From IMG/VR virus record IMGVR_UViG_3300045988_130745: a stretch of 64,000 bases of DNA, one strand, 5' to 3'. Below are positions 36,016-41,406 of the stretch, piece by piece (within the stretch, counting starts at the first letter, position 1; every line of letters begins with the position of its first letter). The notes under the pieces were generated by a model. The model worked only from the letters and a program-made list of their open reading frames with translations, was not told where the DNA came from and ran no database searches. The translations under genes were made by a program, and so were the position numbers. This DNA comes from a virus.

Positions 36016-36032
36016 AATCTAAGCTCTTTTTT
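36002..36032 (+). terminator. Rho-independent terminator
   Basis: AGAGCTTAG/CTAAGCTCT stem, loop AGTAAAAT, T-run merging into the -35 of P9. Confidence 0.7.
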
Positions 36033-36059
36033 GACATAAACATAATTTTATGTTATAAT
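36031..36059 (+). promoter_or_regulatory. promoter P9 heading the radical-SAM/YcaO island
   Basis: TTGACA 36031-36, 17 nt, TGT TATAAT 36054-59, then GATTATAAAAG. Confidence 0.7.
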
Positions 36060-36081
36060 GATTATAAAAGGGGTGAAACAA

Positions 36082-36618
36082 ATGGCTTGGACTTAGGGTG
36101 GGGCAATAGGAGCTTCTGAAGTTAATAATTGGTATACTAGTCTTAATAAAACTATTGGAAGTTATGGCGGTGGAATTGCATAGCTATCTAATCCTATAAG
36201 AGCGGGAAGAGACGTATATGCTTCTGATTTAAATAATTTAATAACTAAATTAAACGAATTAAAAAGAGACGAATATTTAAGCTAGGCAAGTTATGGTAGT
36301 TATAGCTCAGTTTCTGTTGGATAGATTATTCGCGCATCAGATTGGACTGGAATAAATTCAAGTATTTCTAGTTTGACTGGTGTAAAATGTCGGAATAGAG
36401 CTACTTATACAAATGGCGCATCTACAACTACTAATGGTAATGGAGTATGTCGGCAAGGCTATGATAGTAATGGAACAGATTAGAATGGCGGAATGTGGGC
36501 GAATACTTGCACGAACGGTTGGTATGATAATTCTTCAAATTCTCATGGCACAAATAGCGCTAGTCCAAATCGTAATGGCAGTAGGGTAGATATATGGTGT
36601 CAAAATAGCACGGGGTAA
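36082..36618 (+). CDS. 178-aa protein with Cys/Asn/Gly/Ser/Thr-rich C-terminal half (candidate modification substrate)
   Basis: ATG 36082 to TAA 36616-18 with 5 in-frame TAGs. Not in the track. The C-terminal half is CRNRATYTNGASTTTNGNGVCRQGYDSNGTD.NGGMWANTCTNGWYDNSSNSHGTNSASPNRNGSRVDIWCQNSTG. Confidence 0.6.
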
Positions 36619-36620
36619 AA

Positions 36621-37967
36621 ATGAATAAAAAAGATACTGCAATTTTTTATAGCTGCGGAATTTGTAATTTAAATTGCAATTATTGCTGTATAGATAAAAA
36701 TCCAATTTTGAAAGAGATAGATAAAGAATTAGGAGAAAGTTTTTAGGGAGACTATTATTTTAATCAAGTAAAAAAATATTTCCCATTACCAGGTTCTCTT
36801 CGCCAAATTGAAACTTGGGGAGGCGAACCATTTTTAAAAATGGAACGAATGCATAATTTAATTCGTCAATTATGCGATTATTATTTTTATTTTAATAGTT
36901 TTTATAGTTCTACAAATTTCTCATTTCCTCAATGGGCAGATAAAGTTTTAGATCTATTGAAGGTTTTTGGGGAATTTTCTCCGCGTCGCTTTACGATACA
37001 TTTACAGCTTTCTATTGACGGACCAGAATATATTAATGACAGAAATAGAGGCATTGGGACTACTCAAAAATGTTTAAATAATTTTAATATTTTGATTTCT
37101 CGTTTGCCAAATGAGTTGCCTAAAAATATAAATTTGATAATTACAACTAAAGAAACTTTAGATAATTCTTCTATTATGGCTTTAGATTCTAAAAATAAAG
37201 TCATAGAATATTATCAATTTATTGAAAATAATTTTATTAGAAAAATAGATTTACTTAATTTGGACAATGTTAAAATAGAATTTTGTATTCCTAATACAGC
37301 AGATCCTTCTCCAGTTACAAAAGAAATAGGAAAGCATTTTGCAAATATCTGTAAATGGTGCAGAGAAATAGAACAAGAAAATGAAAAATATGGCTATTTT
37401 AGATATTATAAATCAATTACTCCTTTTTCTTAGAATGTTGACAATTTAAAATTGTCTTATAATTATCCAAATTACACTTGCGGGACTGGTTATAATATGA
37501 TTGGATTTTTACCGAATAATATGATTGCTAGTTGTCATGAAAGTTTTGTTTACTTAATTGAAAAATATAAAGATTTTGCAAAAGAATAGATGTCAACTGA
37601 AGTAGATAAAACCATTAATTTTAATAATTTTATTTCTAATTGTAATGCTTGTAAAATGTGTATGTCCGAGAAAAATTTCCCTGAGCATGAAAGATGTATG
37701 TCGTATTATAATCAATCTAATACGATGTTTAGATTAGCAAATATTACAAATGAAATTATGTGTTTAGCATTGGCAAAACAAATAGATCCTAAATATGCTG
37801 AAGAAGAAAAAGCTCTTTCTGCGGCGATTTATCTTCAATCCGCTACCGCTTACTGTATAAAAAATAATTATGAAATGACAGGAAGCTATAGTTTAGTTTC
37901 AGATGGGATATTAAAATTATTATTTAACGGAGCAGCAGATATTATTGAGGGAATAAATGATGTATAA
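36621..37967 (+). CDS. radical SAM enzyme with C-terminal Cys-rich (SPASM-like) domain
   Basis: ATG 36621 is in frame with ORFs 36840..37433 and 37590..37967 across TAGs 36744, 37431 and 37587. CNLNCNYC (Cx3Cx2C), WGGEPF, then CGTGYNMIGFLPNNMIASC and CNACKMC. Confidence 0.75.
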
Positions 37968-39376
37968 CGCAATAACAAACAAAAGAATATATCAAGAAGA
38001 GCAAAATGAATTATTATATAATCTTTTGTAGAAAAGATTTTTTCAATTCTGGGAAAAACCTGAACTTTTCCAAGATAATACTTCTTTGAGTAATAATTCT
38101 AATATAGAACTATTTATTACTCCATATTGTAACCAATCTTGTTCTTATTGTTATTTAGTTAAATATCCAGAATTATATCCTAAAGGAATTTCGAATGATA
38201 AAATTTTAGAAAATTTAAAAATTTTTTTAAATTGGATTAACGAAAAAAATTTTTATCTTCCCGATATTGATTTATTTTCTGGAGAAATTTGGCATACAAA
38301 ATTAGGTTTTGATATTTTAGATATAATTTTAGATTATTGTAAAAATAATAAATTAAAAATTAAGCAATTAATGATTCCAACAAATGGAACGTTTTTAAAA
38401 TCAGATGAAACTTTTTATAAAATGCAAAATTTTATAGATGATTTTAAAGAAATAGGCGTTCGGCTTTGTATTTCTTTATCAATTGATGGAGCAATTATAG
38501 AAAATAAAACACGTCCTTTGAATAATAAAGAATTAAAAACAGATTCTTTTTATGAGAGAGCTTTTGCATTTGCTAAATATAATAATTTTGCCTTTCATCC
38601 AATGATAAGTGCGGTTTCTGTAAAAGACTGGGTGGAAAATTATAAATGGTGGAAATCAGAATGTAAAAAATATGATTTGAATATTTATGATTTAATGATG
38701 CTAGAAGTGAGAAATAGTGATTGGACAGAAGAATCAATTCAAGATTATAATCATTTTTTAAATTTTTTATTACAAGATTTTTTATCTGATTGTAAATCTG
38801 TTGATGAAGCAGTTCAATGTCTATTCAATTTAAGTCCTTCTATAAAAAAATCAATAAATTTAAACAATAATAATTATTTACCCTATGCTATTACTAAAAG
38901 TAATACATATCCTGCTTGTACTATTGCCACACACCTCTGTGTAAGGTTAGGAGATTTAGCTATTTCTCCATGCCATAGAGCTGGATATGAAAAAAAATAT
39001 TTATGGATATTTTCAAATTGAAAACAATAGAATTGTTGGTATAAAAGCGAATAACCCTTATATGGCAATGAGAATTTTATTTGGTAATAATACTATTTGT
39101 TCTCCAAAATGTGACACTTGCGATTTTAATAAAGTTTGTTTACAAGGCTGTTTTGGCGCGCAAATGGAATATAATCAAGATCCTTTTATGCCAATCCCCG
39201 AAGTATGCACTTTCTTTAAAAGTAAATATATTAATCTTGTAAGACAATATAAAAAATTAGGGATTTTAAATGCTTTAGAAAAATATCATTCTTTAGAATG
39301 CATCCAATATCCTATGGCACATTTTGTTTTAAATTTTTGCAATGGAGTGCTAGATAAATATGGCATGGAATCTTGA
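37957..39376 (+). CDS. second radical SAM/SPASM enzyme, frame broken at an A8 run
   Basis: ATG 37957 is in frame with ORF 38086..39021 (TAG 38029). CNQSCSYC. After A8 (38990-97) the sequence continues in the +1 frame as ORF 38987..39376 with CSPKCDTCDFNKVCLQGCFG. Confidence 0.7.
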
Positions 39377-39656
39377 CACTATTTTTAATTTAGGTCCTAT
39401 ATTTTCTTTAGAATATGGCAATATTACTAAAGAAGATTTTGTAAATTAGGATATTAAAAGTATGTCTTTTGATTGTTGTACTCTTGAAAGACAAATGCTA
39501 GGAAGTATCGAACGGACTTTTATAAAAGAGGATGGCACAGTTAAAAGGGAAAAGGTTTATAATCTCTATCCAGAAGGAGCATTAAAGCAATCTTCAAGGT
39601 GCCTGAACGCATTTGGGGAAACCGTTTTTAATTGGGAGAATAAAAATGAATTTTAA
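39360..39656 (+). CDS. 98-aa hypothetical protein between radical SAM and YcaO genes
   Basis: ATG 39360 is in frame with ORF 39462..39656 across TAG 39447. Begins MAW like 36082..36618. Confidence 0.5.
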
Positions 39657-41406
39657 TTTTAATACGAAATATAAAGCAAGAACTCCAGAAGATACAATTT
39701 CTATAGTAAAACATTTTTTCGAGGGAAGAGGTTATACCCTTACAGAAGTTACTTTTTAGACTGAGGCTGGCACATGGACGGTTCATATTGAACTTTTTGA
39801 TAAAGGATTTTATATTCTTCAATCTAATGGAAAGGGCATGACTAAATTATTTAGTTTGGCTAGTGGATATGCTGAACTATATGAACGTTATTGCAATATG
39901 CATCCTATTCTTTCCAATAGAATTTTCCAGAAAAGATTTTTCAATAGTAATTTTGAGAAAAACGGTTTTTATTTTTAGAAAGGAGAAAAAGAAATTTCTT
40001 ATACAGAAATGTTCCAGTCGAACCCAGAAATTAAAGACTTTTTTTATAAAATTTTAAAAACCCCTCAAAATGTTCAAAGATTTTTTAAAGAAAGTTTTAA
40101 TAATAAATTCATTGGAGTTCCTTTTGTTTCGACTAAAAATGATTCAGATATTATTTATATAGACCCAAGAATTTCCGCTTTAATTTGGACTTCAATTGGA
40201 TTAGCTGCAGGAAATAGTATTGAAGAAGCATTAACTCAAGGCCTTTCTGAAATTTGTGAAAGAATTGGTTTGGTAAATTTTTATTTTAAACCTCAAGAAC
40301 GATTTTATGCTATAGATTTAACTAAAATTAAAAATAAAGATTTAAAAGATAAAATAGATAAAATTAATAAAGCTGGATATTTATTTTATGTTATTGATTT
40401 ATCCTATAATTTTAATGTCCCTACTTTAATGTCTATTTTGATTGATCCAATAAGTTTACTTACATCAGTTGATTTTGGTTCTTATCCAGTCTTTAATATT
40501 GCTTTTGAAAGAGTAATTACAGAAATTTATCAAGGTGTTGCGACTTTTAAAAATAAAGAAATTAATATCCAAACACCTTATTCTCCTAATGGAGCAATTG
40601 GATTTTTAAATAGTGCATTAAATAATATTTCAGAAGCTAATAGTATTGATGAAAATTTCTTTTCTAAAGTTACTTTTGTAGAATCTTGCAATAAAAAAAT
40701 TTTTTTAGAAGAAGCTATAGATTTTTCGTCATTGATAAAATATTTAAATAATATTTTCGATAATCTTGGATATAAATGTTATTATGCAAATATGAGCTTA
40801 TCAAAAGATATTGCTGCTATTCGTATTAATGTTCCTGGATTATATTTAATGAATGAAAAAATTGAACTTTTAAGTAAAGCTAGTTCTTTGATTGTAGAAG
40901 ATTGTTTGGATATAATTAAAAATATTAACAATAACATGGATAAATTGCTTTCTTTGAACGAAAATGTTACTTCGGACGAATTAAAAGAAATTTATCAATG
41001 TTTTTATAAAATATCTGATAAACAAGAATCTATGCCACCTATTACAGGAGCAATTATTGGGACTTTACTTTTTTCTAATCCTTATATGGTTTTTGGACAA
41101 AGTAATAGTAATATAATTCATTCTTTAAAAAATTGGCCGGATATTTTTCTTTTTGAATATAAACATTCGTATTGGATGCCTGATTTAAAGAAATATTTAA
41201 CTTTAGTAAGATATAAACAAAATAAATGCTATTCTAAAGAATAGACAATTAACTTTTTTGCTGCTCTAGGAAGTTATATTTCAGAAGAAGATTATGATAA
41301 TGCTTTAAATTCAGATTATATTTTTTCTCAAATCTTTATTAACGGGACTTTAAAATTATATTACAGTTCTTTTTATGACGAACTTATTTAGAAGTTTCTT
41401 TATTGA
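39646..41406 (+). CDS. YcaO-domain protein
   Basis: ATG 39646 is in frame with ORF 40009..41244 across TAGs 39757, 39976, 41242 and 41389, ending at TGA 41404-06. SNGKGMTKLFSLASGYAELYERY and SIGLAAGNSIEEALTQGLSEICERI match the YcaO ATP-binding motifs. Confidence 0.8.

Follow-up and report, generated by a model that had tools for sequence, protein, structure and literature searches.

What is a virus doing with the enzymes of a peptide-maturation pathway? The question arises from a 64,000-nucleotide stretch of viral DNA, IMG/VR record IMGVR_UViG_3300045988_130745 (hereafter the window), in which one operon, here called the island, holds genes for a protein with a low-complexity tail (g1), two radical S-adenosylmethionine (SAM) enzymes (rSAM1 and rSAM2), a small protein (g4) and a YcaO protein. 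To our knowledge, the maturation of peptides by radical-SAM and YcaO enzymes has until now been known from bacteria and archaea only. The window is part of a large phage of gut type that uses TAG as a sense codon; once TAG is read through, long plus-strand open reading frames (ORFs) run across it, many of them with one to six in-frame TAGs. A sequence-only reading of this DNA had assigned to the island the architecture of a gene cluster for a peptide made on the ribosome and modified after translation (RiPP), and the enzyme families, their synteny and the anatomy of g1 all support that assignment. We consider it probable that the island encodes a RiPP-like maturation system acting on g1, that is, an accessory phage operon that would specify a protein substrate together with the enzymes that modify it after translation. 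In architecture and synteny, the putative precursor and its tailoring enzymes appear to fit the general definition of a RiPP system.

Hidden Markov models (HMMs) recover the YcaO domain once the gene is translated in the phage code, in a protein of just the length that had been read from the letters. The protein clears the curated cut-offs of PF02624 (116 bits versus 25.7) and TIGR00702 (82.6 versus 75.65), and its best match in the PDB is the YcaO of Escherichia coli (4q84, E = 1.7e-18, residues 14-311). Columns E77, E80, R81, S201, E202, E205, E288, R289 and E293 do not vary among 16 diverse homologues, and they match E75, E78, R79, E199, E202, R203 and the ExxxE region near 287-291, which we take to be the ATP/Mg2+ site of the E. 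coli protein; the aligned columns thus conserve the residues of that site. The scores against models of individual subfamilies lie below their cut-offs: 90.8 bits versus 700 for NF040716 (YcaO_for_S12, the best NCBIfam match), 34.4 versus 219 for TIGR03604 (SagD and the thiazole/oxazole-modified microcins, TOMMs) and 39.8 versus 365 for TIGR03266 (McrA-type thioamidation). The C terminus (...ELIQKFLY) has no PxPxP motif, the protein has no fused partner domain, and its predicted architecture is that of the E. coli stand-alone type. Neither YcaO nor g4 matches a PHROG family.

Both radical-SAM proteins are likewise recovered after recoded translation, and their best matches are all peptide or protein maturases. 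Each has an invariant CX3CX2C motif with a GGE-type SAM motif, and both match a single phage family, phrog_1802 (E = 1e-13 and 1e-6, the latter more exactly 9.6e-7 for rSAM1). In rSAM2 the cluster motif lies at C58/C62/C65 and the SAM motif reads SGEIW (family HMM, E = 1e-182). Seven further cysteines (C321, C339, C385, C388, C394, C398 and C417) are invariant in 12 homologues and follow the SPASM pattern CX9-15GX4C ... CX2CX5CX3C ... C, a pattern that rSAM1 lacks. The NCBIfam models closest to rSAM2 are PapB (E = 9.8e-13), a ryptide maturase (E = 1.6e-10) and QhpD (1e-6), and a profile of its 12 members finds in the PDB the thioether-forming maturase CteB of the SCIFF (six cysteines in forty-five residues) peptides (5wgg, E = 1.2e-5), with both core and SPASM domain aligned. 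Against the SPASM model TIGR04085, rSAM2 reaches E = 0.011 (16.2 bits versus a cut-off of 27).

The motifs CNLNCNYC and WGGEPF that had been read in rSAM1 are indeed there, with the CX3CX2C cysteines at C15/C19/C22. In its C-terminal half only C287, C305 and C412 are invariant, a set that would fit at most a single auxiliary cluster and no full SPASM domain. Its matches are weak: E = 1.3e-4 to PF04055, under the cut-off; among NCBIfam models, E = 4.5e-6 to YhhB and 4e-5 to XyeB, both cyclophane-forming maturases; and, for the family profile in the PDB, E = 0.003 to ChlB. The original description of both enzymes as SPASM-type therefore holds for rSAM2, with its seven cysteines, and not for rSAM1, with three in its C-terminal half, and the curated scores of both fall below cut-off. 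GrrM is also among the best NCBIfam matches of the pair, and SkfB among the PDB profile matches. QueE, NrdG and MoaA appear only as trailing, weak matches, and the objection that these might be non-peptide enzymes therefore does not apply. In the rSAM2 homologue of a distant phage (contig L009, 11750-14200), a Hint/LAGLIDADG intein is inserted exactly at the third cysteine of CX3CX2C, which marks that motif as functionally critical. A role in defence or anti-defence was also considered and set aside, as PADLOC gave only a weak viperin-like match to the radical-SAM core.

The anatomy of g1 is that of a substrate. Residues 1-102 form a three-helix N-domain, followed by a Cys-Arg-Asn junction and a 76-residue tail with four cysteines and a terminal VDIW motif. 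In the AlphaFold2 (AF2) model, the helices at 11-28, 47-62 and 85-99 have predicted local distance difference test (pLDDT) values of 70-86, and the tail falls below 30. The sequence-only reading was right about a Cys/Asn/Gly-rich C-terminal part with four cysteines but overstated its composition as almost only Asn, Gly, Ser and Thr, which make up 57% of it. We found no match to g1 in Pfam, NCBIfam or PHROG, and a fold search with the model returned no PDB match and no significant fold match to known virion proteins; two matches in BFVD, both to uncharacterised viral proteins at E of about 0.04, were set aside as not interpretable.

An HMMER search of 1.84 billion representative proteins gathers g1 relatives in 154 clusters, 89 of them at E ≤ 1e-10. 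The conserved domain lies at the extreme N terminus in all but two of the clusters; one member, P0301, has an N-terminal extension of 190 residues. Constant in the family are about 100 conserved residues, the invariant Cys-Arg-Asn and a (V/I)DI motif 7-10 residues from the C terminus. The tails are predicted to be disordered, and they are hypervariable and repetitive, with a median Asn/Gly/Ser/Thr content of 56%. Among the loci and representatives analysed they span 57-340 residues with 1-45 cysteines, in proteins of 157-446 residues overall. The repeats are short and specific to lineages (CCNTNSTNAN, CSITCSNKCTAQACGRT, NHGTNS and C-x3-D units), and around the tail cysteines Thr or Ala is preferred at -1, Ser at +1 and Asn at +2. 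In contig L007 the tail consists of C-x3-D repeats, which we liken to the C-x3-D motif that PapB acts on in freyrasin, in its substrate PapA; the tail in the window has no regular C-x3-D. With its conserved N-terminal part and hypervariable tail, encoded directly upstream of the first maturase, g1 looks like a RiPP precursor on the strength of its sequence.

The fourth gene, g4, encodes the 98-residue protein beginning MAW that had been noted before. Its family HMM matches in 10 distinct loci, and a protein of about 100 residues follows rSAM2 in most. There is no match to g4 in Pfam, PDB or PHROG, profile-versus-PDB and Pfam scans of 10 members return noise, and the single-sequence AF2 model is unreliable (pLDDT 41).

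Conservation of the cassette beyond the window is what ties g1 to the enzymes. YcaO homologues number 158 at E ≤ 1e-3, and every contig that we examined carries the same gene set: L002 (YcaO identity 73%), L003-L006 (47%), and the more distant L007, L009, L011 and viral contigs L013-L027 (30-35%). HMMs for the g1 N-domain, rSAM1, rSAM2 and g4, built from six loci, recover these genes beside YcaO on those contigs. Among 14 non-redundant loci, all 14 have YcaO, rSAM1 and rSAM2 together, and the order rSAM1-rSAM2 is invariant; g1 lies directly upstream of rSAM1 in 11, and a g1-like or unrecognised gene occupies that place in three divergent loci. YcaO stands either before g1 or after the small gene or glycosyltransferase family 2 (GT2) gene that follows rSAM2. 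The longer of the 14 are phage contigs of 130-200 kb, and most cassette-bearing contigs are TAG-recoded. Across 185,579 species genomes, a related YcaO occurs in 24 loci; one of them has the cassette, on a 35-kb phage-like contig in a Faecalibacterium metagenome-assembled genome, and neither g1 nor rSAM1 was found in the 23 cellular loci. Identity between the phage-cassette YcaO and its cellular relatives is at most 32%. In the collections searched, the cassette thus looks phage-specific. The sequence-only reading knew of no described phage example, and our searches agree: the full-text literature gave no description of a phage YcaO/radical-SAM cassette, PHROGs and INPHARED gave nothing for g1, and tblastn of YcaO against INPHARED returned only E. 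coli YcaO from host flanks.

The type of the YcaO protein invites another view of its target. E. coli YcaO is an accessory factor of RimO, a radical-SAM enzyme that acts on ribosomal protein S12, and by analogy the island enzymes might act on a ribosomal or translation protein of host or phage, perhaps in support of recoded translation, in which case g1 would not be a substrate. Such a role would suit the stand-alone type of the protein, its best matches (YcaO_for_S12 and 4q84) and its want of RiPP-type partner proteins; the closest cellular YcaO (L031) also lies in a housekeeping context, beside membrane-insertase-like and Jag-like genes as read by eye from ORF translations. We nevertheless regard it as very improbable that the enzymes bypass g1. 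The YcaO_for_S12 score of 91 bits compares with a cut-off of 700, neither radical-SAM protein resembles a methylthiotransferase, their best matches being SPASM peptide maturases, and one cassette (L016) has no in-frame TAG at all. The strict co-occurrence and adjacency of g1 and the enzymes, together with the hypervariable tail, would be hard to explain otherwise than by maturation of g1.

For such a RiPP-like system, we infer the modified residues, the chemistry, any cleavage of the N-domain and the biological role as follows. The three-helix domain of g1 would serve for recognition as a "leader-like" part, and the disordered, repeat-rich Asn/Gly/Ser/Thr/Cys tail would be the part modified. 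With its full SPASM domain, rSAM2 would most likely form thioether cross-links from Cys to side chains, of the ranthipeptide or QhpD type, and rSAM1, with a reduced auxiliary-cluster domain, might install a second radical cross-link or modification. YcaO would use ATP to activate backbone amides of the tail and so form azoline, thioamide or amidine groups, and g4 would be a dedicated small partner, possibly an adaptor. In many relatives, glycosyltransferases of families GT2 and GT8 may lengthen the pathway, as may cysteine proteases in some. Because the genes contain in-frame TAGs, the first already at codon 5 of g1, complete proteins would be made only in the TAG-reading state, and therefore late, with exit at lysis; the late timing also leans on established work on recoded phages.

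Several observations weigh against this picture. All of its chemical assignments rest on distant homology: the two radical-SAM proteins score 22.7 and 23.3 bits against PF04055 (gathering threshold 29.5), rSAM2 reaches 48 bits against the PapB equivalog NF047865 (cut-off 340), and PDB searches with the single rSAM1 or rSAM2 sequence gave no useful match. Beside YcaO there is no TfuA, E1-like or ThiF-like partner and no dehydrogenase, and none of the 14 cassettes has an E1-like or Ocin-ThiF partner gene, so that the reaction type cannot be assigned. Pfam and PDB searches gave no similarity to a RiPP recognition element (RRE) for g4, whose model is unreliable, or for the enzyme N termini, and the stretch of about 50 residues before the cluster motif of rSAM2 is too short for a canonical RRE. 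The window operon contains no leader protease, exporter or immunity gene. Some tails are poor in cysteine (three each in L019 and L003), and those of the divergent L021, L022 and L024 are rich in Tyr or Phe with few cysteines; thioether formation therefore cannot be the sole chemistry, and aromatic cross-links are a plausible product of one enzyme, judging from these sequences. N-x-S/T sequons are not enriched in the tails relative to shuffles. g1 is also far larger than typical RiPP precursors, and "peptide" is a loose term for a substrate of protein size; its size and its folded N-domain are both unusual for such a precursor. The island is, moreover, dispensable, as described below.

If g1 is the substrate, its fate may be sought in the genes around related cassettes. 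GT2 glycosyltransferases lie near 8 of the 14 cassettes, some of them as fusions with GT8 and one joined to a third radical-SAM domain; these gave only generic GT2 matches, and we rejected their assignment as SunS-like S-glycosyltransferases. Papain-like or C39-like cysteine peptidases lie near four of the 14. A CPxxCP family of 263-316 residues ("c6"), with no match in Pfam or NCBIfam, is found beside the cassette in five of the 14 loci, sometimes in two copies (Table 1). None of these three is present in the window, and GT2 and the c6 family were the only conserved extra genes that we found near cassettes. Third radical-SAM proteins were also seen in two contigs: the GT2 fusion in L021 (6178-8232) and a stand-alone protein in L024 (10757-11614) with a weak likeness to HxsC, a maturase of the His-Xaa-Ser system (E = 5e-10).

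These neighbours bear on whether the modified protein is released or built into the particle. Under the same biochemistry, g1 might remain at full length as a head or tail decoration or a fibre, its tail cross-linked (and glycosylated in relatives) against gut proteases or for antigenic variation. Phage-encoded GT2 enzymes glycosylate the C-terminal tails of capsid and tail proteins in mycobacteriophages, and a GT2 or GT8 gene lies beside the cassette in eight of our 14 loci. g1 is protein-sized, with a well-folded N-domain of 100 residues, and its hypervariable, repetitive tails resemble surface-exposed proteins; the 190-residue extension of P0301 and the want of a protease, exporter or immunity gene in the window point the same way. 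In L011 the cassette follows tail-fibre and lysis genes, as it does in L014 and L027, judged by shared upstream clusters. The window island, however, is surrounded by small genes of early type that contain no TAG, away from the structural module (1-21 kb), and natural sister phages have lost it by deletion; a fold search with the g1 model gave no significant match to a known virion protein, and the proteases near four cassettes could remove the N-domain. Virion maturation accordingly strikes us as unlikely, though it keeps the enzymes in the same roles. For the RiPP-like system that we favour, we lean towards an extracellular, protease-resistant polypeptide, either released or on the virion surface. 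As a more speculative generalisation, to which we give somewhat less than even credence, large recoded gut phages might, by a pathway of their own, turn hypervariable proteins, with repeat tails of 100-340 residues and up to 45 cysteines, into densely cross-linked, backbone-edited and often glycosylated "RiPP-proteins" of a sort new to description, by means of two divergent radical-SAM enzymes and a partner-less E. coli-type YcaO. The orphan clade of that YcaO would then gain its first assigned substrate context, and the product would be either an extracellular natural product of a new, virus-made class or virion armour of a new kind.

In the window itself the pathway is probably impaired, because rSAM2 is frameshifted at a run of eight adenines where relatives have seven (Table 1). 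In L054, L055 and L002 the run is A7 and rSAM2 is intact at 472 residues, and removal of one A from the window sequence restores the frame (...CHRAGYEKNIYGYFQ...). Both cysteine motifs that had been read in rSAM2, CNQSCSYC and CSPKCDTCDFNKVCLQGCFG, are thus present, but in different frames and not in one ORF. The frameshift parts C339 from C385 of the SPASM domain, so that the predicted window protein would be left with little of its auxiliary-cluster domain, except if the additional A is a sequencing error or slippage bypasses it; the A8 run itself may reflect mutation or an error of sequencing, or be a site of slippage. The sister phages L001 and L012, both from a single IMG/VR sample, have independent, clean deletions of 4.0-4.5 kb. 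In L012, window position 36059 is joined to 40100 (L012 8995-9005), and in L001, 36111 is joined to 40590 (L001 9990-10015), which fuses g1 codons 1-9 in frame to the C terminus of YcaO. Both deletions take away g1 to g4 along with the N-terminal portion of YcaO, with 5-7 nt of microhomology at each junction. Taken with the frameshift, they mark the island as dispensable and repeatedly lost cargo.

It might accordingly be a decaying passenger in this genome: an AT-rich cargo operon, gained horizontally and since inactivated, with no current function. Besides the split SPASM domain and the sister deletions, this view draws on composition (GC 10 points under the flanks, with an AT-richer cassette in 13 of the 14 loci) and on the position of the island between two paralogous genes. 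The other four genes are intact, on the other hand, and the extra A may be a homopolymer sequencing error or be bypassed by slippage. In L054 and L055, whose YcaO is 96% identical, all five genes are intact, and the cluster at 96% comprises 352 member sequences. Retention of the cassette down to about 30% YcaO identity further implies long-term selection elsewhere. We therefore find a functionless passenger doubtful, and read the window as carrying a probably impaired copy of a RiPP-like system that is maintained in other phages.

The boundaries of the island are listed with its genes in Table 1. As had been proposed, it is a single unit running from promoter to promoter: no full-consensus promoter lies inside it on the coding strand. 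The sequence TTGACW-N16-18-TATAAT occurs 24 times in the window versus 0.15 copies expected by chance, and is therefore a real, reused phage promoter. Its copies range over 12067-63490, usually with TTGACTTTT and an extended -10 (TATGnTATAAT); they mostly precede TAG-free small genes and past about 61.5 kb lie mostly on the minus strand. The hairpin that ends the upstream unit has a predicted folding energy of -15.9 kcal/mol (z = -4.41), and none of 200 shuffles folds equally well. The island had looked AT-richer than its flanks by eye, and windowed GC bears this out, with a cassette average of 27.4% versus 37.9% in the flanks and windows of 24-33% across the island versus about 37%.

Table 1. 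Positions of the features discussed. Coordinates are those of the window, except where a contig is named.
Feature	Position	Strand	Description
Upstream flanking small gene	35770..36015	+	81 aa; paralogue of the gene at 41464-41763
Intrinsic-terminator-like hairpin	36001..36032	+	End of upstream unit; 11-bp stem, 6-nt loop, U6
Island promoter	36031..36059	+	TTGACA-N17-TATAAT, extended -10 TG; sigma-70-type consensus, 12/12 positions
g1, putative substrate	36083..36618	+	178 aa, 5 in-frame TAG; recoded translation
rSAM1	36621..37967	+	448 aa, 3 in-frame TAG; CNLNCNYC, WGGEPF
rSAM2, both frames	37957..39376	+	CNQSCSYC; CSPKCDTCDFNKVCLQGCFG
rSAM2, N-terminal frame	37957..39021	+	354 aa to premature stop; radical-SAM core, CNQSCSYC, C321, C339
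A8 homopolymer	38990..38997	+	+1 frameshift in rSAM2; A7 in relatives
rSAM2, C-terminal frame	38998..39376	+	Remaining SPASM: CX2CX5CX3C at C385-C398, plus C417
g4	39360..39656	+	98 aa, 1 in-frame TAG, starts MAWNLD; recoded translation
YcaO	39646..41406	+	586 aa, 4 in-frame TAG; PF02624, E = 3e-33
Next-unit promoter, right island boundary	41403..41431	+	TTGACT-N17-TATAAT
Downstream flanking small gene	41464..41763	+	99 aa from MSEKNYE; paralogue of the gene at 35770-36015
CPxxCP family members	L016 15055-16005; L019 1909-3624; L020 15321-16223; L021 10796-11674; L024 7266-9004		

On either side of the island lies a small gene, and the two are paralogues (BLASTP, E = 7e-8) with a common motif, DFYGE(L/I)Y..TGEEL. 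The same two genes flank it in L002 and L003, where the downstream one is again 99 residues long. It looks as if the island had entered a pair of tandem genes, or else the two genes arose together with it.

Every island gene has at least one in-frame TAG in the recoded translation, as the sequence-only reading stated. Its further claim, that the island can be translated only under the phage code, is true of the genes in the window but is not intrinsic to the cassette: in-frame TAGs vary from 0 (L016) to 14 per 1000 codons among loci, and recoding therefore belongs to the carrier phages. Gln is the commonest residue opposite TAG (16% over 92 alignment columns), and in L002 it stands opposite four of the eight TAGs of the window enzyme genes; in distant homologues, the columns at the TAGs of the window itself are noisy. 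Reading TAG as Gln appears to be the best-supported assignment, though an unproven one. No TAG-suppressor tRNA was found within the window. An odd tRNA at 43391-43467 was considered and rejected as a suppressor, as ARAGORN cannot type it and Infernal calls it Arg-CCU with a bulged anticodon stem; a tRNA-Glu(UUC) at 42279-42351 was overlooked by ARAGORN. Outside the structural module, three isolated genes (25875-26651, 28797-29543 and 55525-55962) have six in-frame TAGs each, with none in the neighbouring genes; the first encodes a homing endonuclease of the GIY-YIG type. The use of TAG is thus uneven and follows mobile or cargo genes besides late genes.

Elsewhere the window encodes collagen-repeat tail-fibre proteins (phrog_819, E = 8e-56), a reverse transcriptase, RtcB, GIY-YIG endonucleases and two tRNA arrays. 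A diversity-generating retroelement occupies 18228-22644, its target being the C terminus of a collagen-repeat tail-fibre gene. Its variable repeat (20489-20635) and template repeat (20992-21138) form a 147-nt pair at 87% identity in which all core mismatches fall at adenines of the template copy, and the reverse transcriptase gene (21523-22644; phrog_1423, E = 1.8e-34) lies just downstream of the repeats. The nearest public contigs, IMG/VR viral genomes 176-179 kb long, are 91-96% identical to the window in nucleotide sequence outside the island. A DNA similarity search of 50,697 deposited phage genomes found nothing similar to the island or to window positions 1-25 kb.

A conserved five-gene maturation cassette on phage contigs thus brings with it a substrate family that is new, runs to about 150 clusters and had no annotation. 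For the stand-alone clade of E. coli-type YcaO proteins, which is poorly understood, it supplies a candidate natural substrate; it is also a predicted source of divergent SPASM enzymes for protein-sized, repetitive substrates, and it illustrates that stop-codon recoding can hide whole pathways from standard annotation. It also raises the question of why a virus spends about 5 kb on cross-linking a single hypervariable protein.

Among characterised enzymes, the closest to rSAM2 are thioether maturases of ranthipeptide and sactipeptide type (PapB/freyrasin, CteB/SCIFF) and QhpD, which share its CX3CX2C motif and seven-cysteine SPASM domain and are its best matches; the Cys-rich substrate tails are a further likeness, down to the PapA-like C-x3-D repeats of L007. 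QhpD cross-links the QhpC protein, and such enzymes can thus act on a protein subunit. The differences lie in the low score of rSAM2 against the PapB model, in tails with very few cysteines and in a thioether that is here only predicted. With E. coli YcaO (4Q84) the phage protein has in common its length of 586 residues, the residues of the ATP/Mg site and a stand-alone form without PxPxP; the genomic context is wholly other, and the equivalog score is below cut-off. For the E. coli protein, too, substrate and reaction are unsettled, and its clade is without an agreed substrate (PMC7550191). TOMM systems of the microcin B17 type (with SagD/McbD YcaO cyclodehydratases) similarly pair a YcaO domain with a substrate region rich in Gly, Ser, Cys and Asn. 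They differ in having the E1-like or ThiF-like partner, flavin mononucleotide (FMN) dehydrogenase and PxPxP that the cassette lacks, and they contain no radical-SAM enzymes.

Phage-borne biosynthetic clusters have been described before, almost all of them bacteriocin operons of temperate phages, e.g., sublancin (bioRxiv 10.1101/2020.10.01.322628). The sublancin operon, a glycocin locus of the SPbeta prophage, resembles the island as a phage-carried operon for a modified, Cys-containing polypeptide and in its association with GT2, which here is seen in relatives only, where the GT2 proteins are generic and give no glycocin-specific match. Such clusters differ in belonging to temperate phages, in having an exporter and an immunity gene and in lacking radical-SAM and YcaO enzymes. 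Hybrid clusters with both enzyme classes are known from gut bacteria, for example, the Itf cluster and the Bacteroidales biosynthetic gene clusters BGC6-8 (PMC10352776). They, too, set one or more SPASM maturases beside a YcaO and a gene-encoded, Cys-containing substrate, and their SPASM enzymes group with CteB, QhpD and ranthipeptide maturases. Their precursors, however, have about 100 residues or fewer, with Nif11 or GG leaders, and they include PCATs, ATP-binding transporters that contain a peptidase; the phage cassette has a substrate of 157-446 residues with a novel three-helix N-domain, a g4 partner and no transporter, and was found only on phage contigs. A locus in Candidatus Limiplasma (OY776489.1; L043, 1307-10869) appears to be a cellular analogue, as yet uncharacterised, in which a Cys-rich precursor of Nif11 type is accompanied by four radical-SAM/SPASM genes and two YcaO proteins of 580-650 residues that are of the long stand-alone type, like that of the phage cassette. 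Set beside these systems, the island is not a categorically new system: its novelty lies in the carrier of the RiPP-like chemistry, in the substrate family and in the strong divergence of the enzymes.

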